Positions 5,927-57,275 of a DNA stretch of 64,000 nucleotides are shown here, piece by piece; positions within the stretch are counted from its first letter, which is position 1; every line of letters starts with the position of its first letter. The position numbers and the translations under genes are program-made. Origin of the DNA: an uncultured Anaerolineales bacterium (lineage in GTDB: Bacteria; Chloroflexota; Anaerolineae; Anaerolineales; E44-bin32); assembly GCA_965195195.1 (NCBI GenBank), contig CBDAFF010000083.1:4225-68224 (forward strand), given 5' to 3'. The notes under the pieces were generated by a model, which was not told the DNA's origin, did not search any database, and was given only the letters and a program-made list of their open reading frames with translations.

Positions 5927-5929
5927 CGC

Positions 5930-8669: not shown

Positions 8670-8705
8670 TTATTAGCTCCATTCGAACACCAACGAGCAT
8701 ATTTG

Positions 8706-10079: not shown

Positions 10080-10226
10080 TTATATGGCGTTAACGATGCC
10101 ACTAAACACGTTTCCGATGGCAGGGCCGAGCAACGCAAGAATGACAATCACAACAACAGCCACTAGAACAAGAATTAAGGCGTACTCGACGAGGCCCTGT
10201 CCTTTCTCTTTTGGGGCAAATAACAT
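10080..10226 (-). CDS. flp: Flp-family type IVb pilin (48 aa), absent from the ORF track
   Basis: The reverse strand reads MLFAPKEKGQGLVEYALILVLVAVVVIVILALLGPAIGNVFSGIVNAI. This gives the G/QGLVEY prepilin processing motif followed by a hydrophobic helix. AGGAGG lies 7 nt upstream of the ATG. Confidence 0.85.
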   Translation of the reverse strand: MLFAPKEKGQGLVEYALILVLVAVVVIVILALLGPAIGNVFSGIVNAI

Positions 10227-11455: not shown

Positions 11456-11467
11456 AACTGCTCCGGA

Positions 11468-12160: not shown

Positions 12161-12227
12161 AATATCGCCACCTTTAATATTTGACCGCGGGGAGTATAGC
12201 ATACTCAGATGATGCCGGGCAAACTCG

Positions 12228-40148: not shown

Positions 40149-40197
40149 GATAGATTATTTAGATTCGTCCCCTTAGAAAGCACGGTAAATAATCAGA

Positions 40198-40542
40198 ATG
40201 AGGATCGCGATTGTGGGCCCCTGCGGATCTGGTAAAACCGTCCTGGTCAACGGACTGAAGCAGCACGATTATCATGCCCGTCAGATCGCACAGGAGCACT
40301 CCTTCGTACGAGATATGTGGCAGGTGCTGACGAAACCGGATATCTTAATCTACCTGGACGCGAGCTATGAAACGTGCACAGAGCGGAAGGCGCTAAACTG
40401 GAAGCAGCATGAATATACAGAGCAACTCCGTCGATTGGCGCACGCTCGAGAGCACTGCGATATCTATGTCTCAACGGATGACCTGTCACCCGAGCAAGTC
40501 TTGAAAGAGATCTTGGTCCAGCTTCAAGGGATTTCAAGCTAA
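40198..40542 (+). CDS. Small P-loop NTPase (114 aa)
   Basis: Walker A motif at the extreme N-terminus (IAIVGPCGSGKT) and a Walker-B-like ILIYLD. Confidence 0.6.
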   Translation: MRIAIVGPCGSGKTVLVNGLKQHDYHARQIAQEHSFVRDMWQVLTKPDILIYLDASYETCTERKALNWKQHEYTEQLRRLAHAREHCDIYVSTDDLSPEQVLKEILVQLQGISS

Positions 40543-40577
40543 GGCTGGTCTAATTTCCCCGCCACAGACCTTCCTGG

Positions 40578-40865
40578 CTGTCATTTCGAGTGAACCGTGC
40601 AACCGTAAGGGAATGATAGTGTGCCGCCACCTGTCATGCTGAACCCATTCGGCTTCGCTCCCCGCTCCCTCCGGTCGGGGACTTCGCCCCACAAACTGAA
40701 TGGGACTTCGCAGGCTAAACTCCGTGGAGCATCTCGTTCTTCGACATTATGGGTACTTCCCGCCGAGAACGAGCTTCTTCGCTTCCTGCGGTCGCTCAGA
40801 ATGACAATGAAGGAAGGGTTCTGCAATACCAAATGTCATTTCGAGCGATGCGAGAAATCCCTATG
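40578..40865. repeat. Intergenic modular repeat, copy A
   Basis: Shares long, near-identical stretches with 62527..62737. Examples are CATGCTGAACCC.TTCG.CTTCGCTCCCC.CTCCCTCCGGTCGGGGACTTCGCCCC, CTCAGAATGACA and TGTCATTTCGAGCGA.GCGAGAAATCCCT. Confidence 0.75.
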
Positions 40866-40916
40866 ATGTTACTCAGAATGGTCCCTTCCTTGAAACACAG
40901 CGGAATAGAATGAATA

Positions 40917-40946
40917 CGAAAAAGGCCAGACATCTGCTGTCTGGCC
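40917..40946 (-). terminator. Rho-independent terminator of the giant surface-protein gene
   Basis: GGCCAGACA-gcaga-TGTCTGGCC stem-loop followed by TTTTTCG on the minus strand, 46 nt after the stop codon. Confidence 0.7.
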
Positions 40947-40991
40947 TGATATTTCACCCTCGATTTTCGAGCCGGTTGCCGTTCGCCTCTC

Positions 40992-43900
40992 TTATCTCGG
41001 CCGTGGAGAGCGCTTCACTTTCCCCCACCAGGAGAGGATAAATGGGGTCACGAGCATCGCTACAGGGATCAGGAAGGCGATGGCTGCTTCGATGGTTCCA
41101 TCGGATTGCGTTGATGCCATTGCCCAAGATGAGAAGGGAGCCCCCAAGGCAGTAGGTCCATTAATCTCTGCAGGGCCGGTGGCAGTTGTGCCGTTCGTCG
41201 ATGTGATCGTCGCCGTGAAAGTACAAGCTACTCCCGAAGGACCCGCTTGAACGTCTGCAGTGGTGAGAAGACCATCTCCCGCATCCATCGAACCTGATGT
41301 AATGATGGGATTTGGTGTCAAGAGTGTGCAATCACCGGTTACTGCTCCGCTTATCACTATTCCATAAGCGGTTCCCGGTCCACTATTGCCAAAGAGCAAG
41401 TCAAAAGTGAAAACTTCATTTGGATTCAAAGTTACAGCAGAAGGCGAAACGCTGATAAACATTTGTGGATCAGGAACTGGATTGACTACGATCGTCACAC
41501 TCGCCGAGGAACATACAGGACTTGGATCACAGATTTCATAGGTGAACGTGTCCGTTCCGTTGTAATTGTTGTTTGGCATGTAGGTAAAGGAACCATCACT
41601 TCCGAACGCTAATGTTCCATTGCTGACATTCGAAACCAACGTGGGTGAAAACGGATCCCCATCCACATCGTAGTCGTTCGTCAGCACACCTGGAGCGGTA
41701 ATAACTAATGGGGTTAGGGTGTCTTCATCGACGTTATAAGGTCCATCATCTATTGCCACCGGCGGGTCGTTCACCGCATTCACCGTGATCGTCACAGTAG
41801 CCGCTGGGCTCGTATCCGAAGTCTCATCAGGCGCCAACGCACCACTATCCGTGATCTCATATTGGAAGGTCGTCGTTCCGTTGTAATCCGGCGCTGGCAC
41901 AAAGCTAAAGGAGCCATCATCATTCAGGTTGACTGTCCCCTCTGATGGCGGTGGCGTTGCCACCACCGATAGCGTAAGCAGTATGTCACCTAGGCCCGTG
42001 TCGTTGCTCAGCATACCCGGCGCTGATACGTTCAGCGTCACGTCCTCATCCGTGCTGTATCCAGGATCGGCGTTCGCCACCGGTACGTCGTTCACTGGCG
42101 TTACTGCCAAGTCTACTATTGCCGTATCGCACAGCGTTGGCGAAGGTACTCCAGGATCACATATTTCATACTCAAAGCTGTCCGGTCCTCGGTAGTCCGC
42201 GTTCGGCGTGTAATCGAACGATCCATCTGCATACAGCGTCAGCGTCCCATTGCTCACATCGGTCACCGGCGTGGTATTCACCACCAATGTGTCCCACAAT
42301 GGCACGGTCACATCATCCGCAGGATCGCTGTCATTTGTTCTCACCCCCGGTGCAACTTCGTTTAGAATCTCATCTTCACTGACACTATAGCTGTCACCCA
42401 CCGCGTCAGGCGGGTCGTTCACCGAATTCACTGTGATCGTCACCGTGGCCGCTGCACTCGTCTCCGATGTCTCATCAGGCGCTAACGCACCACTGTCCGT
42501 GATCGTGTATACAAAGCTGTCCGACCCGTTGTAGTTCGCCGCTGGCGTGTAGCTGAACGATCCATCATTGTTCAGTGTGAACCCGCCCGGCGCAGCATTT
42601 GTCGGCCCGCTCACCAAATTCAGTGTCAGCAGAATATCCCCTAGCCCCGTGTCATTACTCAGCACTCCGGGCGCTGATGCGTTAAGCGTCGTGTCCTCAT
42701 TTGTGCTGTATCCAGGATCGGCGTTCGCCACCGGTACATCGTTCACCGGGTCCACCGTGATCGTCACCGTTACCGCTGCACTTGTCTCCGATGTCTCCCC
42801 AGGCAGCGTTCCACTGTCCGTGATCGTGTATACAAAGCTGTCCGTACCACGATAGTCCGCCTCCGGCGTGTAGCTGAACGATCCATCATTGTTCAGTGTG
42901 AACCCGCTCGGCGCCGCATTTGTCGGCCCGCTCACCAAATTCAGTGTCAGCAGAATATCGCCCAGGCCCGTGTCATTGCTCAGCACGCCCGGCGCCGATG
43001 CGTTCAGCGTTACGTCCTCATCCGTGCTGTATCCAGGATCGGCGTTCGCCACCGGTACATCGTTCACCGGGTCCACCGTGATCGATACCGTCGCCGTGTT
43101 CGACGTCGCTCCCTGATTATCATCCACCGTATACGTGAAGCTGTCTAAGCCCCGGTAATCCGCATTCGGCGTGTAATCCACTGTGCCGTCGCTTTTTGCT
43201 GTCGCCGTGCCATTAGTCGGACCAGTTATCACCACTACCGACGTAACATCAATCGTCCCATCCACATCCGTGTCACCATCAACCACGTTGATGTTAAAGT
43301 CGATGCTGTCCTCATCCAGTGTGGCACTGTCATTATCCGCCACCGGCGGGTCGTTCACCGAGTTCACCGTTATCGTCACCGTCGCTGATCCACTCGTCTC
43401 CGATGTCTCCCCAGGCAGCGTTCCACTGTCCGTGATCGTGTAATCAAAGCTGTCCGTCCCGAACCAGTTCGCCGCCGGCGTATAGCTAAAAGATCCATCA
43501 TTGTTCAGTGTGAACCCGCTCGGCGCCGCATTTGTCGGCCCGCTCACCAAATTCAGTGTCAGCGGAATATCGCCCAGGCCCGTGTCATTGCTCAGCACGC
43601 CCGGCGCCGATGCGTTAAGCGTCGTGTCCTCATTTGTGCTGTATCCAGGATCGGCGTTCGCCACCGGTACATCGTTCACCGGGTCCACCGTGATCGATAC
43701 CGTCGCCGTGTTCGACGTCGCTCCCAGATTATCATCCACCGTATACGTGAAGCTGTCTAAGCCCCGGTAATCCGCATTCGGCGTGTAATCCACTGTGCCG
43801 TCGCTTTGTGCCGTCGCCGTACCATTACTCGGCCCAGTGGTCACCACTACCGTCGTATCATCAATCGTCCCATCTACATCCGTGTCACCCGCGGTCACGT

Positions 43901-45569
43901 CGATGTTGAAGTCGATGCTGTCCTCATCCAGGGTCGCACTGTCATTATCCGCTTCTGGCGGGTCGTTCACGGAATTCACCGTGATCGTCACCGTCGCTGT
44001 GTCACAAAGTGATGGCGGTGGCACTCCAGGATCACACACCTCATAAACAAAAGTTTCAATTCCGTTAAAGTTCAGGACTGAATCATAGTAAATGGCGCCC
44101 GTGTCATATAAAGTCAGGAAGCCACCCGCATCTGGTGTGCTTATTGGAGTTGTATTAACTGTCAGCGTATCCCAATAATCCGGTGGGACTAAGTCATCCC
44201 CATCACTGTCGTTAACACGCAAACCAGGACTCGCAAACTGAAGTGGGGGACCGTCCTCATCAATCGTGTATGAGTCATCGATTGCGATAGGTGCATCCGG
44301 AATGGATATGACAGTAATCTCCACATCCGCAATATCACACAAACTCCCTGCATCACACGCCCGATAGCTGAAAGTAACCAGTCCGTTGGTATTTAGTTCG
44401 GGTGTGAAGGTGAAAGTGCCATCCAGGTTCAGATTCAATGTTCCACTCGATGGGCCGCTTACTACTTGCGCAGTGAGCACATCCGGAGTCCCATTCCAAA
44501 GTAAATCTACATCATTCCCCAAGACGCCCCCAACCGGAGCGTCCGAATTCGGATCGGAAATAACAAGAGTTGTGTCCTCATTAATACTGTAATCGTCATC
44601 ATAAGCAGTTGGCGCCCCAGTAGGTGTGCTGGTCGGGGTCGGAGTAAAGACATAGACAGGCCTGTAAAAGACCGCAGTCTCGATATTGTCCCCCCAAGTA
44701 TGAACCTCGTTTATGAGAACCTGTCCAGCGACTGTATTCTGCGCATTCGCCTGAAAGGTGAAACTCGGCAATGTGAAGCCACCTTGCGAAATAATTAACG
44801 CCGGACTGAATTGCCAGTAAACCGCAGGGCCTGTAAGGACTCCATCGGGATCAGGACATGGTCCGAAAGTCCCACCTTGATTAGCTGAACCAGGAACATA
44901 TGTCATATCGGCTGGCAGAAAATCACAAATGAGGGTTACTTCGGCAGGTGGAATACTTCCCCAATTTATCACCATTACTTCAAAATCGACCGTGACCGGT
45001 GCGGGTCCAGGTGGGATCTTATAGGGATTGGCAATTTTGACCGGATACACACGCGGCGTCGGCGTCGGCGTATTAGTGGGCGTGGGTGTAATTGTGGGTG
45101 TGTCCGTAGTTGTCGGCGTGAAAGTTGGAATCCACGTGTTTGTTGCTGTGGGCGTATTCGTCGGTGTTGGCGTGCTCGTCGGCGTGGAAGTTACCGTGGG
45201 GGTGCTCGTCGGCAGAGCCGTTGGAGAAGGCGGGTTTGGCGTACAGTTCCCGAGCAGGAAACAGGAATCTGATGGATCCGAAGCGAGAAATATCCCGCCG
45301 CCGTTGTCACCCGCGGCCTCGGCGATGATGAGCGGATTGATGCCGCCAAAGGCGACCGGCGTCCAGATCCCGTAATCTACCGTCAGCCCTGAATGAATCT
45401 CCACATCTTCAAGACCACCGGAGTCGAACCACATGGCGGTCTGCCCGCATCCGAAGAGCACAAAGAAGATTAATAACGCCCACAGCAGCCAGAAGAGAGG
45501 CTGCCGGCGGTCGCCTTCACTCTCTTTATCAGCTCCCATGAGCGTTCTACGATCGATATCGTCGATCAT
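40992..45569 (-). CDS. Giant surface protein/adhesin candidate (1525 aa) with tandem Ig/cadherin-like repeats
   Basis: N-terminal TM segment, a Pro/Thr linker and a DUF11-like segment. At least 10 tandem domains of about 100 aa follow, each opening VNDVPVANADPGYST or VNDPPVADNDSATLDED. The protein ends in a C-terminal TM helix and a basic tail (KVKRSPRPR). Confidence 0.9.
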   Translation of the reverse strand: MIDDIDRRTLMGADKESEGDRRQPLFWLLWALLIFFVLFGCGQTAMWFDSGGLEDVEIHSGLTVDYGIWTPVAFGGINPLIIAEAAGDNGGGIFLASDPSDSCFLLGNCTPNPPSPTALPTSTPTVTSTPTSTPTPTNTPTATNTWIPTFTPTTTDTPTITPTPTNTPTPTPRVYPVKIANPYKIPPGPAPVTVDFEVMVINWGSIPPAEVTLICDFLPADMTYVPGSANQGGTFGPCPDPDGVLTGPAVYWQFSPALIISQGGFTLPSFTFQANAQNTVAGQVLINEVHTWGDNIETAVFYRPVYVFTPTPTSTPTGAPTAYDDDYSINEDTTLVISDPNSDAPVGGVLGNDVDLLWNGTPDVLTAQVVSGPSSGTLNLNLDGTFTFTPELNTNGLVTFSYRACDAGSLCDIADVEITVISIPDAPIAIDDSYTIDEDGPPLQFASPGLRVNDSDGDDLVPPDYWDTLTVNTTPISTPDAGGFLTLYDTGAIYYDSVLNFNGIETFVYEVCDPGVPPPSLCDTATVTITVNSVNDPPEADNDSATLDEDSIDFNIDVTAGDTDVDGTIDDTTVVVTTGPSNGTATAQSDGTVDYTPNADYRGLDSFTYTVDDNLGATSNTATVSITVDPVNDVPVANADPGYSTNEDTTLNASAPGVLSNDTGLGDIPLTLNLVSGPTNAAPSGFTLNNDGSFSYTPAANWFGTDSFDYTITDSGTLPGETSETSGSATVTITVNSVNDPPVADNDSATLDEDSIDFNINVVDGDTDVDGTIDVTSVVVITGPTNGTATAKSDGTVDYTPNADYRGLDSFTYTVDDNQGATSNTATVSITVDPVNDVPVANADPGYSTDEDVTLNASAPGVLSNDTGLGDILLTLNLVSGPTNAAPSGFTLNNDGSFSYTPEADYRGTDSFVYTITDSGTLPGETSETSAAVTVTITVDPVNDVPVANADPGYSTNEDTTLNASAPGVLSNDTGLGDILLTLNLVSGPTNAAPGGFTLNNDGSFSYTPAANYNGSDSFVYTITDSGALAPDETSETSAAATVTITVNSVNDPPDAVGDSYSVSEDEILNEVAPGVRTNDSDPADDVTVPLWDTLVVNTTPVTDVSNGTLTLYADGSFDYTPNADYRGPDSFEYEICDPGVPSPTLCDTAIVDLAVTPVNDVPVANADPGYSTDEDVTLNVSAPGMLSNDTGLGDILLTLSVVATPPPSEGTVNLNDDGSFSFVPAPDYNGTTTFQYEITDSGALAPDETSDTSPAATVTITVNAVNDPPVAIDDGPYNVDEDTLTPLVITAPGVLTNDYDVDGDPFSPTLVSNVSNGTLAFGSDGSFTYMPNNNYNGTDTFTYEICDPSPVCSSASVTIVVNPVPDPQMFISVSPSAVTLNPNEVFTFDLLFGNSGPGTAYGIVISGAVTGDCTLLTPNPIITSGSMDAGDGLLTTADVQAGPSGVACTFTATITSTNGTTATGPAEINGPTALGAPFSSWAMASTQSDGTIEAAIAFLIPVAMLVTPFILSWWGKVKRSPRPR
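42540..43990. repeat. Near-identical tandem DNA repeats inside the adhesin gene
   Basis: 42889..43500 and roughly 43501..43990 align base for base with few mismatches, defining a 612-nt unit that encodes two domains. 42568..42888 is a further 321-nt partial unit. Confidence 0.8.
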
Positions 45570-46657
45570 CGTTCCTTCCTGAGCGGCGGCTCACCACTCG
45601 CCGCATCTTTACTCTTCAGATCCTCTTCAACCACGACTTCAGCGGGTTCTGCCACCTTGGTCTCTTCTCCAGTATCCTTCGTTACCGAGCTCTTTGAAAT
45701 AGTCAATTCGCTCCATTGCGGTGCAAATCCACTGATGCGGACCCCTGGTCCGCCCACTTTTATCTTGAGATCTCTGAATAGATCCCGCAGCGCCTTGATC
45801 CTAGTTGAGACAGCCTCACCCACAGGCTGACGAGTAAGCCATTCCAGGCTGCCCTCGATTTCCTTCCATGGGAGATCGAGAATAGGTTGTTCTTCTTGCT
45901 TCCCCAATTCTTTAATGACCACAACTTTTCGCTCCACAGTTGTGGTTTTCGGTAAAGGCCGCATGCTGAGTTCGAGAGAAGTGCCATCCAGATCAATTTC
46001 CCACTCGGAAGAAGCCCATTCCTCATGCATTGACTCAAGGTATTTATGGATTGGGTGATCTGGATCGGAACGATCCTTCGCCAGCCAGATATCGGCGGTT
46101 GGGTTGCTCGTTACCACCCGCCCGCCTGGCTCCACAACCAGCACCCCATCCGGCAGGCTTGCGAGCAGATCCTGCAATTCCCGCCGCCTTCGCTGCAGTT
46201 GAACAACTCTATCGGTTACTTCTTCCTCCAGCATGTCGCCCCTCCGCTGCTGGATCTTCGCCAGACGCTCGTTATCCAGAAGCGCCTGCCGGAATTGCAG
46301 CGCACGGGCGACGACATTGTCGAAGACGCTGTAATGATCAAAGGGTTTCACGAGGTATGCAAAAGCGCCGTTATTCAATGCCTGTACCGCGTTTTCAAGC
46401 GTGGCCCCGGCGGTGACGATGATCACCTGGGTTTGCGGATCGCCTTCTTTCGCCTGCTGCAGCAACTCCAATCCGGTAACCCCGGGCATATAGATATCGC
46501 TCACGACCAGGTCAAAGCTTACATTCTCAAGTTTAACGAGCGCTTCACGCCCGTCTAAAGCTTGATGAATCTCAAGGCCCTGTTTCTCCAGTCTGCGGAC
46601 CATTAATTGCAGCATCGCTGCATCGTCATCAGCGACTAAAACAACTGGGTTAGCCAT
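45566..46657 (-). CDS. Response regulator: receiver plus PAS-like domain, no recognisable output
   Basis: Canonical receiver (VVLVADDD...VVSDIYMPGVTG...VKPF), then a coiled coil and a PAS-like segment. The TGA stop overlaps the adhesin ATG (ATGA). Confidence 0.85.
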   Translation of the reverse strand: MANPVVLVADDDAAMLQLMVRRLEKQGLEIHQALDGREALVKLENVSFDLVVSDIYMPGVTGLELLQQAKEGDPQTQVIIVTAGATLENAVQALNNGAFAYLVKPFDHYSVFDNVVARALQFRQALLDNERLAKIQQRRGDMLEEEVTDRVVQLQRRRRELQDLLASLPDGVLVVEPGGRVVTSNPTADIWLAKDRSDPDHPIHKYLESMHEEWASSEWEIDLDGTSLELSMRPLPKTTTVERKVVVIKELGKQEEQPILDLPWKEIEGSLEWLTRQPVGEAVSTRIKALRDLFRDLKIKVGGPGVRISGFAPQWSELTISKSSVTKDTGEETKVAEPAEVVVEEDLKSKDAASGEPPLRKER

Positions 46658-46726
46658 TCTTCACATCTTTCCTTCTCTACAGCTTTTTCCTAATCCTACA
46701 AACGGTTCAAGATATTCACCAAGTCG

Positions 46727-48190
46727 TCAAGCCAGCTCCCTTTCCCCCTCGGCAATGGGCAAGGAGATCGCGATTGTGCTTCCTACAGTGCCCTGTCCCC
46801 TAACCCAGACCTGGCCTCCCATTCGATTAACAATTGCTTTGACCATCTCCAATCCAAAACCCTCGAGCTCTTGCAGGTATTCCGCCCCCTCTAATTCATT
46901 TTCTTCCACGGTACCTGGCTTCCGTTTCTGCAAACCATCATCCGTTACTTCAATCCAGACAAGATCTTGATGCCTCTTCCCGGAAACTCTTACGGAACCG
47001 CCACGCGAACTTCGAGCGGCTGCACGATTGATGAGGCCCTGAAGCATCCTCTCGAAGACACTTTTCTCTACACGGATTTCAGGAAGATCATCCTCGATCT
47101 CGAGGGCCAAGTGTATATCGCGCTCTTTATTCAACTCGTCAAAACGTGTTTGGAGATCTTTGTTCGCAACCTCCGTAACCGCAACCTCGCCCGTCTGGTA
47201 CCCGATCCCCGCTTCCACACGGACCAAGGAGATTAATTCATCCATCCAATTTTGTATCCTGCCCAGCAACTTAGCGAGCTGATAGACCGTTGCTGATCGA
47301 TCTTCATCAGAGATTTCCGATGCATCTCCCAACTCGGCTAATCGTGATACAGCTTGTGCTAAAGGCAGACGGATTTTTCCAGCTGCTTCTGTTAACATCC
47401 GCATTTTTAATTCATCGAGATTCTTCAGATGCGTAATGTCTCGGCAGATCATGACCCAACCCCGTCCACCATCGCCTCCTTCAACGATCGAAGCCAGACT
47501 TACAAGCTGCAGCGCATCATCTGGCCAATTTAACTCGGCAACCGTCGGCTCTGAATCGCCAATCGTCTGCCATCCATCCAGCAAATCCACCAATGCCATC
47601 GGCAAGACCTCATGCGCGTTCGAGCCAATTAGATCTGATCTCCCAAACAAGTGCGCTGCGGATGGGTTGGCAACGGAGATCGTACCGGTTTGATCGACGG
47701 AGATAATGGCATCACCACTATGAGTCATCAACGCTTGCAGGCGTGAGGCCTCAGCCGTCAGTTGATCGTTCAGGCGATCACGATCGAACAGCAGGTTCCG
47801 ATGTTGTGCAGCTCGACCTACTGCTAGCGATAGCTCTCCAATCGTCTCCAGCGGCTTAAGCAGGTAATCGAAAGCACCATCTTCCCGCATCGCCGAGACG
47901 GCGTTTTCAACCTGACCTGATGCGGTAATGACAATAACCTCAAGCCATGGATCCAATTTTTTCGCCTGGCGCAGTAGATCCAGCCCTGACACTTTTGGCA
48001 TCATCAAATCGGTCACAAGGACTTCGAAGGATTCTTCCTGCAGACGCGCAAGAGCCTGCTTCCCATCACTCGCTTTTTCGACTTCGAAGCCTTTTCGCTC
48101 CAGATGGCCAGCCATCAAGGTGCTATAGGCTTCCTCGTCATCAACGACTAGAACTCGCGACATTCTTCTCAACTTCCATGGGTTGTTCAT
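46727..48190 (-). CDS. Receiver-PAS-kinase-like hybrid protein; the H-box appears to lack His
   Basis: Canonical receiver (VLVVDDEE...LVTDLMMPKVSG). The HATPase has DDG and GFGLE boxes. The expected H-box reads MLTEAAGKIRLPL rather than ..SHE.RTPL. Confidence 0.8.
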   Translation of the reverse strand: MNNPWKLRRMSRVLVVDDEEAYSTLMAGHLERKGFEVEKASDGKQALARLQEESFEVLVTDLMMPKVSGLDLLRQAKKLDPWLEVIVITASGQVENAVSAMREDGAFDYLLKPLETIGELSLAVGRAAQHRNLLFDRDRLNDQLTAEASRLQALMTHSGDAIISVDQTGTISVANPSAAHLFGRSDLIGSNAHEVLPMALVDLLDGWQTIGDSEPTVAELNWPDDALQLVSLASIVEGGDGGRGWVMICRDITHLKNLDELKMRMLTEAAGKIRLPLAQAVSRLAELGDASEISDEDRSATVYQLAKLLGRIQNWMDELISLVRVEAGIGYQTGEVAVTEVANKDLQTRFDELNKERDIHLALEIEDDLPEIRVEKSVFERMLQGLINRAAARSSRGGSVRVSGKRHQDLVWIEVTDDGLQKRKPGTVEENELEGAEYLQELEGFGLEMVKAIVNRMGGQVWVRGQGTVGSTIAISLPIAEGERELA

Positions 48191-50150
48191 CTAAGCTGTC
48201 AGCTCGTAACGGTAGAGAGACGATGAAGGTTGTTCCGATGCCGACCTCGCTCTCTACGTCGATGCGACCTCTGTGGCGCGAAACGATGCCGTAGCTCACG
48301 GAGAGGCCTAAACCCGTTCCCTCTCCCTCGGGTTTCGTGGTAAAGAAAGGATCGAAAATTCTAACGACGTTCTCTTCAGGAATCCCCACCCCGCTATCGC
48401 GCATAGTTATAACGAGATTATCATTATCTTCTTTCAACGATACGTCCAGCGTGCCTCCATCATGCATCGCTTGGACGGCATTCGTCACGAGGTTGATAAG
48501 CACCTGTTCGATTTGCTGCGGGTCATAAGTCGCCATGACCGAAGTCAGAGGTAGGTCTTGTACAAGCGTGACGTTTCCTTTTCGCACGAGATATTCGGTC
48601 AGGCGGAAAACCGACTCCAGCGTAGCGCGCATATCACGAGTCTGCATTTCAGGCGTTGATTGCCGGGCGAACTTGAGCAAGTCGGTGACGATCGTGTTCG
48701 CCTTGGATGCACTGTCACGAATGGTCTCAAGGCCATCTACAGCAAACTCATCCAGGTCACCTTCTTCGGACAACTCTTCGGCTAAGCCTTTAATAACTGC
48801 CAGCGGGTTCTTGACGTCATGAACAATGCCCGCTGTCAACTGCCCGACGGAAGCGAGCTTCTCAGACTGGATCAGCTGCGCCTGTGTCGCCTGCAGTCGG
48901 GCGTTCATCTCCTCCAACTCCTTCGCCCTTTGAATGGCTTCTTTATATAGGCGTGCAGCTTCCTCGGTACGCTCCCGCAATCGCAAAGTCATGATGTCGA
49001 ATGCATTCGCCAATTCGCCGATCTCATCCCTCCGCACTAACCCACTACTGCGCTCAAGATCCCCCCCCGCGACTGCCTGTGACATTGAGCGCAGTTGGAG
49101 GATCGGACGAGCGACGTGCTGCGCGAGCAGATAGCCGAGTACGATTACCGCTCCAGTACCGAGTGTGAAGATTAGGCTGAAGGTATTGCGGTTGGTTGAC
49201 AGAGCATTGGCGATATACTCGCTGGAGGTCACAACTCCGATGAAACCAGCTTCGGCGTCGCGGATCACTAATGGGGTGTAGAGGACTTCATAATCGCGCC
49301 CGTAGAGTTCCATCTCTCGATTTAGGGATGTCAAACCCGCATCTCTGAGCGACTCCCCATCAATCTCGAGGATGCCATAACCTCCTTCCGGTTCCACCAG
49401 CGTGGTCGTGACCAATGAACCATCCGGATTCAAGATAAGAATATCGGCGAGAGCCTGCTGTCTTAACTCATCCAGAAGAATACCGATTTTTGTCCCAATC
49501 AAGAGTGCCCCGACGAGTTTTTCGTCGGCATCCCTAACCGGTGCAATGGTGAAGATGAACTTCCCCAAGTGAGTATCCAGGATACCCGCAAACTTATCCC
49601 CAATCTCATCATACTGTCCAGAGAGAACGTCTTGAACCCATACGAAGGATGAATAATCATCCCCTGTATAGAATTCTGTGCTGCCAGCCTCGGGATCATA
49701 GGTTAAGGTGATAATCCCCTTCCCCTGATCATCAATTGCGGCAATCACATTAATATTGTTATTTATTGCCAGCCCCTCAAACGTCGCTTGGAGACTCTCA
49801 CGGTCCCGTTTCTCAATTGCCTCCGATACGCCTGCCATGTAAGTGAGCAGGCGCAGGTCTTCCAAGTGCTTTTTCTCTTTGCGAACAATTCCATCCGCCG
49901 TCACTCGGCTAGCTTCAACCATTTGATTTCCAAAACGCTCTTCAAAAGAACCCGAAACGAGGCGAGTGATAATAAACACGCCAACCATTGCAACGACGAG
50001 AGTTAACAAGGCATAGGGAACGATGAGCTTGGCGCGCAGGCTCGAGAAGATGGGGATGCGGGCAATAACGCTCTCAAAGAAGTTGTTCATCCGTTTGAGG
50101 ACGTCCTTTGGAGCTTTCTCTCTAAACCAGGCTCTAATATCCATAAGCAT
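48141..50150 (-). CDS. Membrane sensor histidine kinase (extracytoplasmic sensor, HAMP, HisKA, HATPase)
   Basis: Two TM segments flank a loop of about 270 aa. HAMP ([18 protein letters not shown]), H-box ([10 protein letters not shown]) and HATPase (DSGVGI...GTGLGL) are all present. Confidence 0.9.
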
Positions 50151-50313
50151 TCTAACGATCAGATCCGACCCTCGTTCTTACTGCTGTACGGAGTCTCAAT
50201 TTGGTGCTTCAATGGTGGAATGCTCAAAGCGATGCCTTCGCGACCGGAAAGTTTCTCGCTTCCAGGGAATGGGTTCTCTAAACCAAAATCACGATCAACA
50301 GAGGACATAGCAC

Positions 50314-51261
50314 TCACTCCACAGGACCTTGGGCCTCAGCCGCGAGAACATGGAGCCTCTCGCCCTCAGAGCGCTTGGCGAGATACATCGCCTCATCGGC
50401 TGCATGGACGAAGTCTTTCGATGTGTCAAATCCTGAGTGCCACTGCACGACTCCCATGCTTACAGAGAGCTTCCCTGACTCAAACTCTACGTTCAATATA
50501 GCCTCACGAATGCGTTTCGCGACTGCAGCCGCTTCCTCACGGTCCGCCTCCGGGAGAAGAACAATGAACTCATCACCTCCAAATCGCGTACCCAGGTCAA
50601 CTTTTCGAATCGAATGCTGGATGGATCGCGCTACAAGCTTCAGCGCTTCATCCCCGGCTGCATGGCCGTAGCTGTCATTGATGGCCTTGAGCTTATCCAT
50701 ATCGATCATGATGATGGACAGCGGCCGGCTGTATCGTTTCGCTCGTTCTAATTCCGTATCTAAGTTATCCTGCAACTTGTGGCGATTGTATAAACCAGTG
50801 AGCGAATCAGTCACCGCCAGACGCTGGATTTCCTCGAAGAGGCGCTTGTTTTCCTTCACCAGATACCTGCGTTCAAGCGCACGAGATAAGGCGAGTTCAA
50901 AACTGGTCATCGACTCCAGAGGTTTGGTGAGGTAGTCGTATACGCCTGCCCGCAGCGCCTCTACGGCGGTCTCGACGGAGGCGCTTCCCGTGAGAATGAG
51001 CGCTTGAACATCCGGATCAATCTTACGCGCAGCATCGATCACTTCCAAGCCGGTATGCTCAGGCATGTATAAATCGAGTACAAGCGCGTCGAATTCACGC
51101 TCGTTCACCGCATCCATCGCCTGTTGACCATTCGCTGCCTGGTAGACCTCGAGACCCATGCGGGAGGCGCGGCGAGAGAGGAGCCGCCGATAATCTGGAT
51201 CATCCTCAGCGATTAATATCGTTCCAACCTGCATGCTGCCTTTCTTTTTATCTTCAGTCAA
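50314..51261 (-). CDS. Response regulator with a GGDEF diguanylate cyclase output (PleD/WspR-like)
   Basis: Receiver (ILIAEDDPD...LVLDLYMPEHTG...TKPL). The GGDEF active site is intact (RFGGDEF), with an RxxD I-site (RKVD) five residues upstream. Confidence 0.9.
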   Translation of the reverse strand: MTEDKKKGSMQVGTILIAEDDPDYRRLLSRRASRMGLEVYQAANGQQAMDAVNEREFDALVLDLYMPEHTGLEVIDAARKIDPDVQALILTGSASVETAVEALRAGVYDYLTKPLESMTSFELALSRALERRYLVKENKRLFEEIQRLAVTDSLTGLYNRHKLQDNLDTELERAKRYSRPLSIIMIDMDKLKAINDSYGHAAGDEALKLVARSIQHSIRKVDLGTRFGGDEFIVLLPEADREEAAAVAKRIREAILNVEFESGKLSVSMGVVQWHSGFDTSKDFVHAADEAMYLAKRSEGERLHVLAAEAQGPVE

Positions 51262-51617
51262 GACATATCCTCCATGTGGGCTTCTCTAAAACGGAAAACC
51301 TAATGCCACATGCGGTACAAGCGTTACTTTTCACCCACATCTTACCTGAATTAGCGGGTAAAAAACCTTGCAACCGACCTACATCTAAACAGCAGCCCTT
51401 TGAGAAGGATTCATCATGCAAAAGCTCATATTTCTGCTGAAATTCCTTCTTGTAAATCGTGAACCCGTTTAAACACAAACTAAGCCAACCTCCGTCCCGA
51501 AAAAAAACGAGGTTGCCCCCTGCTCCGATAACCATCTACCGGACTGATTTCATACACTGTGTACTATGAGGATTTTATGTCATGTTGAAGTGCAAAGCAA
51601 GTATGGTTATACGAAAC

Positions 51618-51645
51618 AAGAACCCCACATCACTGCGGGGTTCTT
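51618..51645 (-). terminator. Candidate terminator downstream of the 764-aa TadE-like gene
   Basis: GAACCCC...GGGGTTC stem followed by TTGTTTCGT on the minus strand, about 30 nt after the stop codon. Confidence 0.55.
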
Positions 51646-51676
51646 CAATGGGCTATCTGCTTAATTATTCTCTCGC

Positions 51677-53971
51677 CTAACCGAAATCTGGTGGTGTACT
51701 CGTCACTGTCGGGGTGGGCGTCACCGTCGGCGTGCTTGTAAATGGCGGCGGCGTAAATGTTTTTGTGGGCGTTGGCGTAGCCGTCCAGATAGGTGTCCGC
51801 GTTGGCGTTGGCGGTGGCTCCGCCCAGTAGCTACCTACCACCTGACAGGTACCCCACCCCGGGAAATTAAACGTTAAGGTGCCGCGGTAGAAACCGTTGA
51901 AGGGCTGTCCATTCAAGTCGAAGTACGTATCCCACCAGCGATCCGCACCCGTCGAGAGAGGGATCGAAGGCGCTGCCGCAGAGACAGGAGAGCTGAACGA
52001 AGATCCGCCGTAGGAGGTGCCCTGGAACTTGAAATAGTCGAAGTTCATCGGCGGCGCATAAGTTGTGTTCCATTGCAGAGTTGAGCTCGTCAGGTACGCT
52101 GTCTGTGGGTTGTGGTTGATCAGGCGAATGCCGAAGGTATTATTCTTCAACCGGGTGCCGATGTTTTGCAGTAGATTGCAGTTCGGCGTCGGAGTAGGCG
52201 TAATCGTTGGCGTGTTCGTTACTGTCGGGGTGTTGGACGGTGTGGGCGTGATCGTCGGTGTGAGCGTAATCGTCGATGTGGGTGTAATCGTCGGCGTGAG
52301 CGTCGCCGTTCCCGTCGCCGTAGGAGAGGGCGTCGGTGTAATTGTTGGGAAGGTGATCGGCGCGGCCCCGCTAGATAGATTGCACGCGGGGTCGCTGAAC
52401 TGGATCGTGAAGCCAAAGTGGCTTGAATTGAGATTCAGCGGCGAAGAGGAAAAGTAGCCCTCAAAGCCGCCGTTGAAATTCATATAGATGTAGGTCGAGT
52501 TCGGCCCCAATGCCACTGGTTTCGGCAAGCCTGTATTTGCCGATGTTGAAGAGCTGTAGTCGTTCCCATTATGGACTTTTGATGTATACCAATACATCCA
52601 GTCGAGGTATTCATTCCAACCATATTGATTTGAAGCCTGCTCGACTGGATTCCAATTGGCCGTCACACCTACGACCTCCAGCCCTGGATAGCTGGTGTTG
52701 TTGATCCATTGGGCGACGCGAGCGTCACTGAAGAAGCGAAACTGGCCAAAGCTCACACCCTCGCAAGAAGGTGTCGGCGTCAAAGTTGGTGTCGGTGTCA
52801 ACGTTGGTGTCGGTGTCGGTGGGACGCCGATTTCAAACACCACATCAGCCCAATTACTCCAAATCCCTTCATCGTCGAGCGCTCTCGCCAAGAGTTTATG
52901 CTGACCCGACTCTATCGGTTGCCCGTTGGGCCATTTAGCACTTACCACAGGGTGACCATTGCAAGGAGCATTACCGCCAAATGCGCAGTAATCCGTTGTG
53001 TAATCCACCTCGGTATAGCGCCAAGCCCAGCCAGCACCATCCCACCAGAAGAACTGGAAATCCACTTGCATGATCCCGTCCCCATCAGGTCCAACACCCG
53101 CGCATGTCGCCGTGTCGGAGTTATCCGGGTCATACGCCTGTGCATAAGCGGGAATCTTTGAGCCCGGACCGCTGAATATATCACCTGGCGATGGTCGTAG
53201 TATGGTAATCAACGGCGGTACCTTGCAGGGTGTCTCCGTCGGCGTCGGTGTGTGCGTTGGGGGAGGGGTCATCGTAGGAGTTGCCGTTGACGTAGGGGTC
53301 GCGGTGTTTGTTGGCGTGAACGTCGGTACCGAAATCGTCGCCGGCAAGCCAACAACACGGGCAACTCGGTACTGTTCAACGATGCCTTCGCGCTTAGCAG
53401 TAAGCCGGATTTTCGGCATCCATGAGCTTATGATTGGGCTTATGATCGGATGATCGAAATCCAGCGTAACCGAAACCCGATTGCCCGAACCGCCCGCATC
53501 TTCAGTCAGCTGACAATCTGCCGATATACTGGCAGATGAATCCGAGGGGAAATAGACAATATCCTTTTTATTCGAACAGACTGTAATCTTTAAATAACCC
53601 GGCGCACCGGGAGGTGCAGAGAGGTCCCGCAGAATACCCGCTGATCCAGATAAGGCATTGTCTTTAATCGAAGGGATGCGAGCGCCATCCTCCTCCGTTT
53701 TTGAATCGCAGATCCCCCCGGGGTACCCGGCACAATAAGTCTGTTCATATTCACCTGTGACGGCGTAGCGAACACCAAAGCGAGCGCCATTCTCGATCGA
53801 GACCCAGGCGTGCAGCAATCGGGCGATCTCGATGATCGCGAAGAGAAGCAGGAGCATGACAGGCAAAATGAGTGTAAACTCGACAAGTGCCTGTCCTTTG
53901 AATTTCGAGTGTCCTTTTTCTTTCATAATTTTTTCGCCCCGCACATCCAAGTTAATCAAACAACCCGACAT
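51677..53971 (-). CDS. Giant TadE-like pseudopilin fusion, paralog A (764 aa)
   Basis: N-terminus KFKGQALVEFTLILPVMLLLLFAIIEIARLLHAW is a TadE-type prepilin-like leader and helix. Three Cys-bounded beta-rich modules follow, separated by Pro/Thr linkers. The protein ends ...TSTPPDFG. A more likely start is the ATG at 53926 (MKEKGHSKFKGQ...). Confidence 0.8.
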   Translation of the reverse strand: MSGCLINLDVRGEKIMKEKGHSKFKGQALVEFTLILPVMLLLLFAIIEIARLLHAWVSIENGARFGVRYAVTGEYEQTYCAGYPGGICDSKTEEDGARIPSIKDNALSGSAGILRDLSAPPGAPGYLKITVCSNKKDIVYFPSDSSASISADCQLTEDAGGSGNRVSVTLDFDHPIISPIISSWMPKIRLTAKREGIVEQYRVARVVGLPATISVPTFTPTNTATPTSTATPTMTPPPTHTPTPTETPCKVPPLITILRPSPGDIFSGPGSKIPAYAQAYDPDNSDTATCAGVGPDGDGIMQVDFQFFWWDGAGWAWRYTEVDYTTDYCAFGGNAPCNGHPVVSAKWPNGQPIESGQHKLLARALDDEGIWSNWADVVFEIGVPPTPTPTLTPTPTLTPTPSCEGVSFGQFRFFSDARVAQWINNTSYPGLEVVGVTANWNPVEQASNQYGWNEYLDWMYWYTSKVHNGNDYSSSTSANTGLPKPVALGPNSTYIYMNFNGGFEGYFSSSPLNLNSSHFGFTIQFSDPACNLSSGAAPITFPTITPTPSPTATGTATLTPTITPTSTITLTPTITPTPSNTPTVTNTPTITPTPTPNCNLLQNIGTRLKNNTFGIRLINHNPQTAYLTSSTLQWNTTYAPPMNFDYFKFQGTSYGGSSFSSPVSAAAPSIPLSTGADRWWDTYFDLNGQPFNGFYRGTLTFNFPGWGTCQVVGSYWAEPPPTPTRTPIWTATPTPTKTFTPPPFTSTPTVTPTPTVTSTPPDFG

Positions 53972-54136
53972 TAATCGTCGTTCGTCACCTGTTCCAAGTT
54001 TACACGCGGGAGTCTTAATTCGTCCTTACAACCAACTTACGGCTTCGGTAGCGGGAGATTGGGGAGTCTGTCTAAAGAAAGAAATCCCGGTGGCGATACG
54101 GAAAGCATTGTTCAGTCATGGGGAAATATGAGGAGT

Positions 54137-54265
54137 TGTCATTCTGAGAGACCGCAGGGAGCGAAGATTCTCGTTCCAGGCCAGGAGACCCATCAATTCT
54201 AAGAACGAGATGCTTCACTTCGTTCAGCATGACAAGTTCCTGCATGCTGTCATTTCGAGAAGAGA
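54137..54265. repeat. Intergenic modular repeat, copy B (shorter and inverted)
   Basis: GTCATTCTGAGAGACCGCAGGGAGCGAAGATTCTCGTTCCAGGCCAGGAGACCCATCA is the reverse complement of 62639..62697. It is followed by CATGCTGTCATTTCGAGAAGAGAATC. Confidence 0.65.
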
Positions 54266-54281
54266 ATCAAGCGCTAAGGGC

Positions 54282-54959
54282 TTACGTCTCCAGGCGGTAG
54301 CCGTAGCCCCGGACGGTGACCAGCCGCGTCGGATTCTCCGGGTCTGGTTCGATCTTCCGGCGTAGAAGCCAGATATAGCGTCGCAGCGCGCTGCCGCTCT
54401 TAACTCGCATCTCCCCCCAAACATCTGCTATCAGATCATCCTGCGAAACAGCTTCTCCAGAACGACGAGCGAGCGCGGCGAGAAGTCGAAATTCTGTTGG
54501 AGTGAGGTCGAGCACTCGATCCTCTATGCACGCCTCGCGTTTTAGCATATCCACTGCAATCACACCAGCGAAGAGGACATCATCCTCGCTGTCCGACTGT
54601 GTTCGAGCGAGCACAGCTTGAATGCGGGCAACGAGCTCGGCCATGCTGAATGGCTTAGTGATGTAGTCGTCAACGCCAAGACGGAAGCCGCGCAGCTTGT
54701 CTGCTTCCGCGGTCTTGGCCGTGAGTAGAATTACAGGCACATCGGCCAATTCCTTGAGGCGGGCGCAAACCTCCCAGCCGTCCATCCCGGGCATCATGAC
54801 ATCCAGAAGCACAATCGCCGGACGCTCCTTGTAGAATTGGCGCAGCGCCTTCTGCCCACGGTCTGCGATCGAAACCTGGAAACCCTCTTTCTCTAAGTAT
54901 TCAGAGACAAAGCGTAGCAGAGTTTTATCATCATCGACGACAAGCACTTTATTCGTCAT
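54282..54959 (-). CDS. OmpR/PhoB-family response regulator
   Basis: Receiver (VLVVDDDK...LLDVMMPGMDG...TKPF) plus a winged-helix domain (LTPTEFRLLAALA...VRGYGYRL). Confidence 0.9.
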   Translation of the reverse strand: MTNKVLVVDDDKTLLRFVSEYLEKEGFQVSIADRGQKALRQFYKERPAIVLLDVMMPGMDGWEVCARLKELADVPVILLTAKTAEADKLRGFRLGVDDYITKPFSMAELVARIQAVLARTQSDSEDDVLFAGVIAVDMLKREACIEDRVLDLTPTEFRLLAALARRSGEAVSQDDLIADVWGEMRVKSGSALRRYIWLLRRKIEPDPENPTRLVTVRGYGYRLET

Positions 54960-55103
54960 GGCAAACCTCGGTAAATAATCCTTTCACCAACTATGGATTC
55001 CCGATTATCGGATTGCTTCCATAGATTGAAAAACTTAAGGCTCTCTCAGTGATCCTCAATCGATGAACCTAACCAGGAAACAAGGAAACCTTCCCCCACT
55101 CAC

Positions 55104-57275
55104 TTACTTTATCGGCAGCCAAAATTCAAGGCACGTTCCCGCCATCGCTTTTTCATCCACTCGAATTCCGCCTCCCATAGCTTCCAGTAATCGTGACACC
55201 ATGGGTAAACCCAATCCGTGGCCATAGACCTCACGTGCATCGCTTGCATCTAATCGATGGAACAGCTCGAAGACATGCTCGCGCTGGTCCGCGGGGATTC
55301 CCGGACCCGAATCGACAACTGTAATAACAACCCTCTCCGATTCCTCATGAGCTTCGATGATGATGTCACCAGATGGTGCATACTTCACCGCGTTGTCCAG
55401 CAAATGGAAGAAGACGCTATCGAGTGCGCGCACATCCGCGATCGCCAGGACCAGGTCCTCCCCGATTTTCGTTTTTACTCGAGATTTGACGGTGCGGGCG
55501 GGAAAGCGTGCAATCGTCCTCTCAAGGACCTCGGCAATCGAGAGCGGCGAGAGCGTTAGCTGAAATCTCCCGGCTTCTAATGCCGATAAATCCAGGATAG
55601 TCTCAACAAATAGAGAAAGGCGCTCTGTCTCGTCTTGAACGAGCTGCAGAGATTGACTCGACTTCTTCCCAAGTTTTGAACGGTTCTTGAGGACGAGCTC
55701 TATCCCACCGCGTATGTTCGTCAGCGGCGCCCTCAGTTCATGTGATACGAGGGCTACGAATTCCGATTTGAGGTTGTCGAGCGTTTTTAACTCCTCATTT
55801 AACCTCTCGAGATCTGCGACTGTGTCCTCTAATTCTCGGGTTCTCCCCTCGACCTTCTCCTCCAGTTCAGCGTTCAATCTGGCAAGGTCGTTGCGGGCCT
55901 GAGCAATTTGCTCCATAGCATTTCGCAGGTCGGTCTCACGCTCGCGGATCATCGTCAGATCGTAAGCGGTACCCGCCAGCAAGGCACTCTGGCCGCGGGC
56001 AGCCTCTATCGGGTTGAGTGAAAGTTGCACCGGAAGCCTCGAGCCACCCTCTCCAACGATCACAACCTCCCCGCTCCAACCCCCATCGAGAGCACTATCG
56101 AGGAGCGTATCAAACGACGCCGGCTCGTCGCCTTCGATTTGGAAGAATAAATTCACATTCTGAGCTTTTTCGTCGCCTATCGCCCTTCGCAGTGCTGGAT
56201 TAGAGAGCTGTATTTCACCCGCCGGAGTGCAAATGAAAGCCAGGTCAGAGGTCGCATTGATGAGCGCCGCGAACTGCACCATCTCCTGCTGACCGGTAAT
56301 TACGCCCTGGCGGGCGAACAGAAGCAGGATCAGGATCCCTGCCGCGACGATACTTACCCAATCCAGAGCATCTGTATACCACCAATCAAAAAGGATGTAG
56401 CCAACAACGGCATAAGTGAAGGCTATAGGCAAAAGCAGTTCTATCCGCAGCCGCCACTCCCTCCGCCCGGATTCCTCTTGACGGTGGTCTGCATACCGGC
56501 CTTGTAAGATCTGATAAGCAATGCCAATAAGCACCATTCCCACCATCCAACCCGCCTCGACAAAGCTCGGCATCCCAACCCGCGCCTCGCCGCGCAGCAG
56601 ACCATTTCCTAAATCGCTTACAAAAAATACTATAAAAGCTATCGCCAAGAGCGGAAAGACCCAGCGCTCCTGGGGATGCCTACGAAGTAGATTTAATCTC
56701 AAAACAAGAACGAGCAGTATAAGGTCTAAAGTGGGAAGAACACTCAACCAAAAAGCATCCCCTAGAGAGAGCGTTCGTGCGCGGAATGTGGAGCCCAAGA
56801 AGATGAGCCAGGAGATCGTTAAGACGGAGAGGATCAAGATGGCGAGATCAAGCGTTTCCCGCAAACGCCCGAAGCGCCCCGGCTGCTCGGTAGGATAGGT
56901 GATAAATGCTGTAAGTGCAGCAAGATAACCCGCCAGTATTAATAACTCGCGAAAAGTCGGCGGGGATAGGGGTTGACCGCGTAAAAGCCATAGTAGGACG
57001 GCAAGCACATCCGCGGCAGCCCAAATCAGCAGTGCGACGGCGAGCAGCCGCCAGGAGCGCTGCTCGGATTTCAAACGGATGCCAGGAAGCGTCTTAACCA
57101 CAGCCCAGGCGACAATCAGCCTGACGCCTAAAACCAGAAACGCAGGAAACAAGCTGCCTTCCATCGTCTCTGGCGCTCGCGCTATCCAGAGGACGTAAGA
57201 TGCTGTAACCAGGGCCACAAAAACCGGCCAATGCCGACTGTATAGCTCGGAGAGATGTGAATTCTCGTTCATCAA
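55104..57275 (-). CDS. Sensor histidine kinase with a multi-TM N-terminal sensor, a PAS domain and a coiled coil
   Basis: About 8 TM helices, a PAS-like region, H-box VSHELRAPLTNI and HATPase DSGPGI...GHGLGL. Confidence 0.9.
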   Translation of the reverse strand: MMNENSHLSELYSRHWPVFVALVTASYVLWIARAPETMEGSLFPAFLVLGVRLIVAWAVVKTLPGIRLKSEQRSWRLLAVALLIWAAADVLAVLLWLLRGQPLSPPTFRELLILAGYLAALTAFITYPTEQPGRFGRLRETLDLAILILSVLTISWLIFLGSTFRARTLSLGDAFWLSVLPTLDLILLVLVLRLNLLRRHPQERWVFPLLAIAFIVFFVSDLGNGLLRGEARVGMPSFVEAGWMVGMVLIGIAYQILQGRYADHRQEESGRREWRLRIELLLPIAFTYAVVGYILFDWWYTDALDWVSIVAAGILILLLFARQGVITGQQEMVQFAALINATSDLAFICTPAGEIQLSNPALRRAIGDEKAQNVNLFFQIEGDEPASFDTLLDSALDGGWSGEVVIVGEGGSRLPVQLSLNPIEAARGQSALLAGTAYDLTMIRERETDLRNAMEQIAQARNDLARLNAELEEKVEGRTRELEDTVADLERLNEELKTLDNLKSEFVALVSHELRAPLTNIRGGIELVLKNRSKLGKKSSQSLQLVQDETERLSLFVETILDLSALEAGRFQLTLSPLSIAEVLERTIARFPARTVKSRVKTKIGEDLVLAIADVRALDSVFFHLLDNAVKYAPSGDIIIEAHEESERVVITVVDSGPGIPADQREHVFELFHRLDASDAREVYGHGLGLPMVSRLLEAMGGGIRVDEKAMAGTCLEFWLPIK

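Follow-up and report, generated by a model that had tools for sequence, protein, structure and literature searches.

An apparent signalling operon with a giant surface-protein gene beside the Tad pilus genes of an uncultured Anaerolineales bacterium

Five genes on one strand and their boundaries

The window analysed in this work is a stretch of 64,000 nucleotides (nt) from contig CBDAFF010000083.1 of an uncultured Anaerolineales bacterium (assembly GCA_965195195.1), a 3.39-Mb metagenome-assembled genome (MAG) with 92.5% completeness, to which all the genome-wide counts given below refer. Between positions 40992 and 51261, its minus strand carries five co-directional open reading frames (ORFs), which the ORF list and the Pfam and NCBIfam scans resolve into a response regulator with a cyclase domain (RR1), a histidine kinase (HK), two more receiver proteins (RR2 and RR3) and a giant surface protein. 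An earlier note on this DNA had read here the order REC-GGDEF, HK, REC-PAS-kinase-like, REC-PAS and adhesin, and this anatomy was borne out by the ORFs, the domain scans and the translations. The junctions RR1/HK, HK/RR2, RR2/RR3 and RR3/giant gene measure, in this order, +163, −23, +69 and −4 nt, so the tight spacing originally described is correct for the overlaps but not for the RR1-HK spacer of 163 nt (50151..50313, minus strand), a region with no terminator-like site on the minus strand and no Rfam match, whose equivalent takes 25-61 nt in some other genera. The overlap between HK and the next gene does exist, but it spans 23 nt, as given by the RR2 start conserved in 11 orthologs, and not 50. 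At the last junction, the stop codon of RR3 and the start codon of the surface-protein gene share an ATGA, which can be read directly at 45566..45569 (minus strand), with AGGAAGG upstream. The translational coupling proposed from it, however, is clade-specific and occurs only in relatives with an RR3 85-93% identical to this one; in the well-assembled loci of more distant congeners the spacing from RR3 to the adhesin goes from an apparent overlap (by longest-ORF starts) to about 140 nt. A 4-nt ATGA is the commonest type of overlap within operons, and hence unremarkable.

Two terminator-like hairpins were taken as the boundaries of the unit. On the 5′ side, a hairpin at 51618..51645 (minus strand; 12-bp stem, 6 of its pairs GC, followed by a T-rich tail) ends the upstream TadE-like gene, and a hairpin of different sequence is found at the same position in 7 species. 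On the 3′ side, a second hairpin stands after the giant gene at 40923..40947 (minus strand; 10-bp stem with 6 GC pairs, then TTTTCGTATT), with TTTTCG directly after the stem (40947-40923). A consensus scan of 40400-54400 gave no other strong terminator-like hairpin on the minus strand between these two, and in a distant congener a strong hairpin was similarly found only after the giant gene and none internally. Moreover, an Rfam search of 40000-55200 with E-values up to 1 detected no known RNA or riboswitch in either the 350-nt leader or the 163-nt spacer. Because the genes share a strand, the hairpins occur only at the ends, and both the hairpin and a promoter-region box are kept in relatives, the five genes can be regarded as one apparent operon, most likely expressed as a single transcript of about 10.4 kb that would run from a promoter with a 19-nt box to the hairpin past the surface-protein gene.

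The box, TGTAGGTCGGTTGCAAGGT (51365..51383, minus strand), is located about 100 nt upstream of RR1, a position where it occurs in 5 genera with the consensus TGTAGGnnGGwTGmAAGGT, and it has the look of a direct repeat (period 11 bp, centre near −42). A −10-like hexamer, TAAGAT (51339..51344, minus strand), with a putative promoter function, follows 20 nt downstream, and the combination of box and TAnnAT at the same spacing is kept upstream of RR1 in the loci of the genus and of the family, across those five genera. A weight-matrix scan of the whole genome gave 2 box sites of at least 20 bits versus 0 in a shuffled genome, with no further copy within the window. The second strong copy (contig C64:88839-89969, L124) is found upstream of two tandem genes for CheY-like receivers, which may point to a small regulon made up of signalling genes. 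The box was rejected as a standard sigma-70 promoter, as the TTGCAA within it is 23 nt from TAAGAT and thus too far, and for this reason it was read as a putative activator site. An obvious candidate for the corresponding regulator is the neighbouring OmpR-type protein (54282-54959), the sole DNA-binding response regulator in the Tad accessory block (40992-62467), which forms with a second kinase, HK2, a classical pair (54282..57275, minus strand; Pfam) that is syntenic across the family. A 93-residue ORF at 51254-51535 (minus strand) was also considered as a sixth gene and discarded: it spans the box and the −10-like element, overlaps the RR1 start and matches no family. Its region is only 46-76% identical among relatives versus 88-93% for the flanking genes, and the ORF is probably spurious.

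A sensor kinase, a cyclase and two further receivers

The gene for RR1 (50314..51261, minus strand), with a TTG start, encodes a receiver-GGDEF protein of 315 residues that scores 150.2 bits with the Pfam GGDEF model (cut-off 23.8) and 84 bits with REC. Its receiver shows the D20/D21 acidic pair, the acceptor D63, T91 and K113, and an I-site, RKVD (219-222), stands five residues upstream of the GGDEF motif (228-232, within RFGGDEF). Both RKVD and RFGGDEF are invariant across 9 RR1 orthologs, in full agreement with the intact GGDEF site and RxxD I-site noted before. RR1 is predicted to be a diguanylate cyclase with a phosphorylatable receiver, in which phosphorylation would stimulate the synthesis of cyclic di-GMP (c-di-GMP). 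This arrangement of a phosphorylatable receiver, a helical linker and a GGDEF domain with an RxxD five residues upstream is that of WspR, PleD and DgcR, although PleD has two receivers where RR1 has one, and the Wsp-type chemosensory input of WspR is absent here, the input of RR1 being presumably a Cache kinase. RR1 stays below the NCBIfam equivalog cut-offs for both PleD (211 vs 474 bits) and DgcR (170 vs 500 bits).

The kinase itself (48141..50150, minus strand; 669 residues) has the Pfam architecture TM-dCache_3-TM-HAMP-HisKA-HATPase, TM being transmembrane segments. Two hydrophobic stretches located in the translation (46-62 and 323-343) flank a dCache_3 domain (81-294; 36 bits for a cut-off of 25.7), which confirms the membrane kinase with a large extracytoplasmic sensor that had been proposed. 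Its catalytic boxes are complete (H444, N557, G1 DSGVGI at 585 and G2 GTGLGL at 611), with scores of 49.8 bits for HisKA and 103.6 bits for HATPase_c.

A different picture is offered by RR2 (46727..48163, minus strand), a receiver-PAS-pseudokinase. The longest ORF reaches 48190 (487 residues), and an alignment of 11 orthologs sets the conserved start, MSR[VI]LVVDDEE, at window residue M10, position 48163. The protein scores 38.4 bits with the Pfam HATPase_c model (cut-off 26.4), and its residues 141-483 align to VicK (4i5s, E 7e-22), so that a DHp and GHKL fold is present. Its H-box reads EAA(G/S)(K/R)(I/F)R(L/I)PL in 11 of 11 orthologs; in alignments to the VicK and WalK structures, Gly271 falls at the position of the acceptor His (Gly or Ser in all 11), an invariant Arg389 takes the position of the Mg-ATP Asn of the N-box (again 11 of 11), and several orthologs have degenerate G1 and G2 boxes. 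Since both the acceptor His and the N-box Asn are absent in every ortholog, RR2 was read as catalytically dead, and it looks like a conserved receiver-fused pseudokinase in which catalysis has been lost and this state maintained. In the same genome, the nearest paralogs of HK and the three receivers are a kinase and a REC-DHp-CA hybrid, encoded side by side on contig C71 (58680-61797). The latter, a paralog of RR2, retains the acceptor His, and is likely a picture of RR2's catalytic ancestor.

Among the structural-sequence matches of RR2 we found DivL (PDB 4q20), a protein that reads the phosphorylation state of its partner instead of catalysing transfer (PMC4211667). DivL (PMC4211667) and PsmA (PMC12963549) share with RR2 a DHp-CA fold without the acceptor His, and LvrB (PDB 8vc9) has, like RR2, an N-terminal receiver ahead of the kinase core; RR2 differs in that it also lacks the Mg-ATP Asn (the invariant Arg), carries a receiver of its own and is cytoplasmic. 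An end-to-end NCBIfam match to 'response regulator EpsF' was not accepted as a name for RR2, with 82.6 bits for a cut-off of 900, and a literature search found no characterised protein of this EpsF-like architecture.

The last receiver protein, RR3 (45566..46657, minus strand; 363 residues), has a Pfam REC domain followed by 250 C-terminal residues without any Pfam name or Pfam PAS match. An AlphaFold2 model built with 11 orthologs (mean predicted local distance difference test, pLDDT, of 74) shows for these a long helix (109-167) after the receiver, a PAS-like alpha/beta unit (171-251; pLDDT of about 80-88) with the pattern of strands and helices typical of PAS, a two-helix hairpin (264-302) and a disordered tail. 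A fold search with this model was dominated by receiver domains and left the C-terminal part without a name. Profile-profile comparison gave 37% identity between RR3 and RR2 over 195 columns, which extend from the receiver across the linker to half-way through the PAS, and RR3 is, at the level of sequence, a truncated paralog of RR2.

All three receivers have the acidic pair, the acceptor Asp, the Thr and the Lys, invariant across orthologs. Moreover, they are mutual best matches among the about 35 receiver ORFs of the genome (90-109 bits vs 62-77 for the next ones), and the next-best receiver (376 residues, on contig C71) adjoins the closest paralog of HK, with 42% identity in the core. Cognate sets of kinases and receivers show parallel duplication, and as the kinase and receiver partners appear here to have been duplicated in parallel, it is plausible that the three receivers share HK as their kinase. 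With regard to their outputs, neither the Pfam and NCBIfam scans nor the RR3 model revealed a DNA-binding domain (helix-turn-helix or winged-helix) in RR1, RR2 or RR3, and c-di-GMP is the only enzymatic output of the three. In this regard, the idea of a relay tying an external signal directly to the production of the adhesin is not supported, as none of the receivers has a DNA- or RNA-binding output. Without a DNA-binding domain the circuit cannot by itself set the transcription of the adhesin gene, and the operon argues for sensor and adhesin being co-expressed, not for one controlling the other.

The giant surface protein and its shifting place in the family

The giant gene (40992..45569, minus strand) encodes a surface protein of 1525 residues with Big_9/Cadherin_4 domains (Pfam and NCBIfam). 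From its N-terminus, we find a lipobox-like LFGC with the Cys at position 41, a juxtamembrane module, a Pro/Thr stalk, the repeat region, with 10 Big_9/cadherin ('tandem-95') repeats, a C-terminal hydrophobic helix and a basic tail. The lipobox-like motif, carried by the N-terminal 'anchor' (45447-45569, minus strand), suggests a lipoprotein signal peptide and not a membrane-spanning anchor. Across genera, the first ~100 residues of these giant proteins are conserved, with a lipobox-like (L/I)(L/F)(F)(G/A)C, an ADY and an NP-I-E motif before the Pro/Thr stalk, and this N-terminal module occurs in one copy in the present genome. The distal domains, on the other hand, are exchanged and may be Big_9/cadherin repeats, DUF2341 with LamG, or YWTD and DUF5122 propellers, in proteins of 1119-2172 residues that differ in length and domains even among congeners.

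The relatives of the source genome are uncultured Anaerolineales or Anaerolineaceae MAGs. Of the 27 other genomes of the genus, 21 encode a full-length RR3 ortholog (19 of 24 in a first draw); at the level of the family, 16 of 24 genera have one, with 42-52% identity. Within the genus, the genes follow the order prepilin peptidase, TadE, TadG, TadE638, HK2, OmpR, TadE764, RR1, HK, RR2, RR3 and giant gene, which is identical in every locus with enough sequence despite a protein identity of 52-68% between distant species. The operon is thereby linked to the Tad genes, with an A24 peptidase, TadE, TadG and two giant TadE-like genes directly upstream, while 3′ of the giant gene come a divergent P-loop/PP2C pair, a HATPase-REC-REC protein and YkuD. 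The linkage of the adhesin in related genomes, which the earlier note had left to be checked, is seen in every locus of the genus that reaches beyond RR3, and in 7 of the 10 genera examined the giant gene lies in the operon or directly after it. Many short-read contigs end no more than about 1 kb from RR3, a pattern to be expected where a repeat gene breaks assemblies.

Beyond the genus the arrangement is not fixed. The order RR1-HK-RR2-giant-RR3 is found in genera g18 and g26, and RR1-HK-giant-RR3 in g40, g33 and g24, with RR2 missing from the operon in g40 and g33; the sole g37 contig starts inside HK. Three more genera have no giant gene in the operon, which reads RR1-HK-RR2-RR3 in g36 and g30, with a convergent secDF next, and RR1-HK-RR3 in g28; in these three, proteins with the N-terminal module are encoded elsewhere. 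As a side observation, a convergent secD-secF pair follows RR3 in loci L028, L029, L040 and L041, all from other genera, at a place where this genus has the giant gene and no secDF. Another locus, L043 (JAIWHF010000178.1), is a 5.2-kb contig with an RR3 92% identical to this one, filed in a 'Methanosarcinales archaeon' MAG with a coverage of 0.2; almost certainly it comes from Anaerolineales and was binned wrongly.

Readers of c-di-GMP and the proposed circuit

The absence of any c-di-GMP receptor or phosphodiesterase, reported at first, holds within the window only, as both are found elsewhere in the genome. Four GGDEF proteins are encoded in it (the REC-GGDEF described here, an FHA-GGDEF, a membrane GGDEF with an I-site and a degenerate REC-GGDEF), together with a single HD-GYP protein, a REC-HD-GYP on contig C43, and three c-di-GMP-I riboswitches with 70-89 bits for a gathering score of 35; EAL, PilZ and MshEN domains and c-di-GMP-II riboswitches gave 0 matches each in this 92.5%-complete genome. 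One of the riboswitches (76.6 bits; contig C74:32253-34821, L121) is followed, after about 170 nt, by a tadE-tadE-tadG-like operon, another one (contig C81:24431-25017, L122) precedes a gene for a single-domain receiver, and the third (contig C67:20264-20420, L123) is at a contig end where the downstream ORF is not clear; in front of this last one stands a variant of the 19-nt box, TGTTAGGATATTGTAAGGT, which 4 species share. Riboswitches of the c-di-GMP-I class occur in 26 of the 28 genomes of the genus. The association of riboswitch with TadE/TadE/TadG is present in 12 of them (the source genome and 11 others), and that of riboswitch with receiver in 13 other genomes. The sole recognisable readers of c-di-GMP thus appear to be riboswitches, one conserved target being a second set of Tad minor pilins.

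Altogether, we give somewhat better than even credence to the locus being, as a whole, a signalling operon that is conserved as an accessory of the Tad (Flp) locus, a single unit in which a kinase would act through three receivers and c-di-GMP on riboswitches. The membrane kinase would sense an external cue by means of its double-Cache domain, autophosphorylate on His444 and pass the phosphate to the three paralogous receivers. Phosphorylated RR1 would then make c-di-GMP, limited by its own I-site, whereas RR2 and RR3, with no enzymatic or DNA-binding output, would most likely serve as phosphorylation-dependent partners or as phosphate sinks that tune the flux to RR1. The giant lipoprotein-type adhesin would be co-expressed with the sensor module and not controlled by it. 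Riboswitches elsewhere in the genome would read c-di-GMP, including that made by RR1, and one of them would gate the second tadE-tadE-tadG set, a circuit that may in this way couple an external cue to the make-up of an adhesive surface.

Several points weigh against this proposal. The 163-nt spacer between RR1 and HK could harbour an internal promoter, and the paralogy of the receivers suggests a shared kinase without proving it. An invariant His254 at the PAS/DHp junction of RR2 could conceivably be phosphorylatable. Moreover, both the FHA-GGDEF and the membrane GGDEF are likely active cyclases, so the riboswitches need not respond to RR1 specifically. Finally, in genera g28, g30 and g36 the signalling operon does without a giant gene, and the adhesin is thus not obligatory for the module.

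This last point leads to an unlikely explanation, namely that the surface-protein gene is a passenger in a variable slot beside the Tad minor-pilin genes, its adjacency reflecting just a shared neighbourhood and timing of expression. The three genera with no giant gene in the operon would fit with it, as would the position of the gene, which depending on the genus follows RR3 or sits between RR2 or HK and RR3, and a length (1119-2172 residues) and domain content that vary even between close species. Against it, the conserved N-terminal module of the gene is single-copy in this genome, 7 of 10 genera have the gene within the operon or immediately behind it even though the operon has been rearranged, and its insertion between operon genes devoid of terminators preserves co-transcription. 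It is quite improbable, on the other hand, that RR1 is the only cognate partner of HK and that RR2, RR3 or both are phosphorylated by other kinases, such as HK2 or the C71 paralog, or act unphosphorylated. In its favour, the genome has about 38 kinase-core matches and about 35 receivers, HK2 is encoded 5 kb upstream on the same strand, and the operons of g40 and g33 do without RR2; but HK2 already has its OmpR-type partner, the three receivers form a single group of paralogs and the receiver that is sister to this group is paired with the sister of HK, and RR3 accompanies RR1 and HK in most genera.

A further possibility, to which we attach very little probability, is that sensing is coupled to the adhesin, with the Cache domain monitoring the load, ligand or cleavage of the lipoprotein through its juxtamembrane module, so that a contact made by the adhesin would itself set off c-di-GMP synthesis and the re-tipping of Tad pili. 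It would explain why only the first ~100 residues are conserved across genera when the distal domains are all exchanged, and it agrees with a module unique to this operon in the genome and with a giant gene embedded inside the operon in several genera. Nevertheless, the Cache domain of HK is retained in genera where the giant gene is unlinked, and the conserved N-terminus may serve for export and anchoring only. In its most complete form, and with a similarly slender chance, the operon would be a self-contained 'adhesin-as-antenna' sensor, in which the Cache kinase reads the mechanical or ligand state of the lipoprotein, RR2 and RR3 shape the flux, and c-di-GMP riboswitches exchange the subunits of the Tad tip; were this true, the exchangeable distal domains would let each species retune both sensing and sticking.

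Coming back to the accessory signalling operon that we favour, its closest functional analogue is the PprA-PprB system, which lies by the tad locus of Pseudomonas aeruginosa. PprA-PprB co-ordinates Flp pili with the giant adhesin BapA; PprB binds DNA and switches on the promoters of flp, bapA and cupE (PMC3510237, PMC6821963). In both cases a two-component system is tied to Flp/Tad genes and a very large repeat adhesin, for an adhesive, biofilm-type surface. In contrast to PprAB, the receivers described here have no DNA-binding domain, the output is c-di-GMP, the adhesin gene is placed inside the signalling operon, and the adhesin is an apparent lipoprotein and not a substrate of type I secretion. 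A comparable case is LapA/LapD/LapG of Pseudomonas fluorescens, where c-di-GMP signalling works with one giant repeat adhesin and LapD is a GGDEF-EAL receptor. The absence of any EAL domain in this 92.5%-complete genome excludes a mechanism of the Lap type, and moreover the adhesin comes with no indication of an outer membrane or of type I secretion. Control of Tad pili by c-di-GMP is established in Caulobacter crescentus, with input from the flagellar motor and with pilus protein effectors that are unknown (PMC6581867). The likeness is that c-di-GMP stands upstream of Tad pilus behaviour, given the riboswitch preceding tadE-tadE-tadG; the difference lies in the readout, which here would be made by RNA in a genome lacking PilZ, MshEN and EAL.

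Filamentous Anaerolineales are core members of the communities of anaerobic digesters and activated sludge. Their adhesiveness in these environments has been attributed to Tad pili, for which published work on Anaerolineae notes only a machinery cluster and its expression, with no mention of their regulation in the literature found (PMC4877987, PMC10746286). In this line, the locus provides a concrete and conserved candidate circuit, with a kinase for external signals, a cyclase, two apparently catalytically silent receiver proteins and a co-expressed adhesin with swappable domains. It also offers a test case for the role of receiver-fused pseudokinases, and for specificity in a very small c-di-GMP network made of three to four cyclases, one phosphodiesterase and no PilZ. 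All the components are of known types, and the layout is a variation on known adhesion-control circuits; what is notable is a giant gene at shifting positions of the operon, a receiver-fused pseudokinase, and a c-di-GMP readout apparently made only by RNA that reaches the Tad minor pilins.

The same window encodes the Tad machine itself. The genes cpaB, tadZ, tadA, tadB and tadC occupy positions 3966-9851, and upstream of them a gene for a Flp pilin of 48 residues (…GQGLVEYALILV…) is found at 10080-10226 (minus strand), preceded in turn by a pair made of a HisKA_3 kinase and a LuxR-type regulator (10388-12202). TadZ/CpaE proteins usually have a degenerate, 'atypical' receiver. The homolog in this window (7404-8669, minus strand) contains, however, a fully canonical one (REC, 99.5 bits), with the DD pair, the acceptor Asp, the Ser and the Lys, and this component of the pilus machine could be phosphorylated directly.

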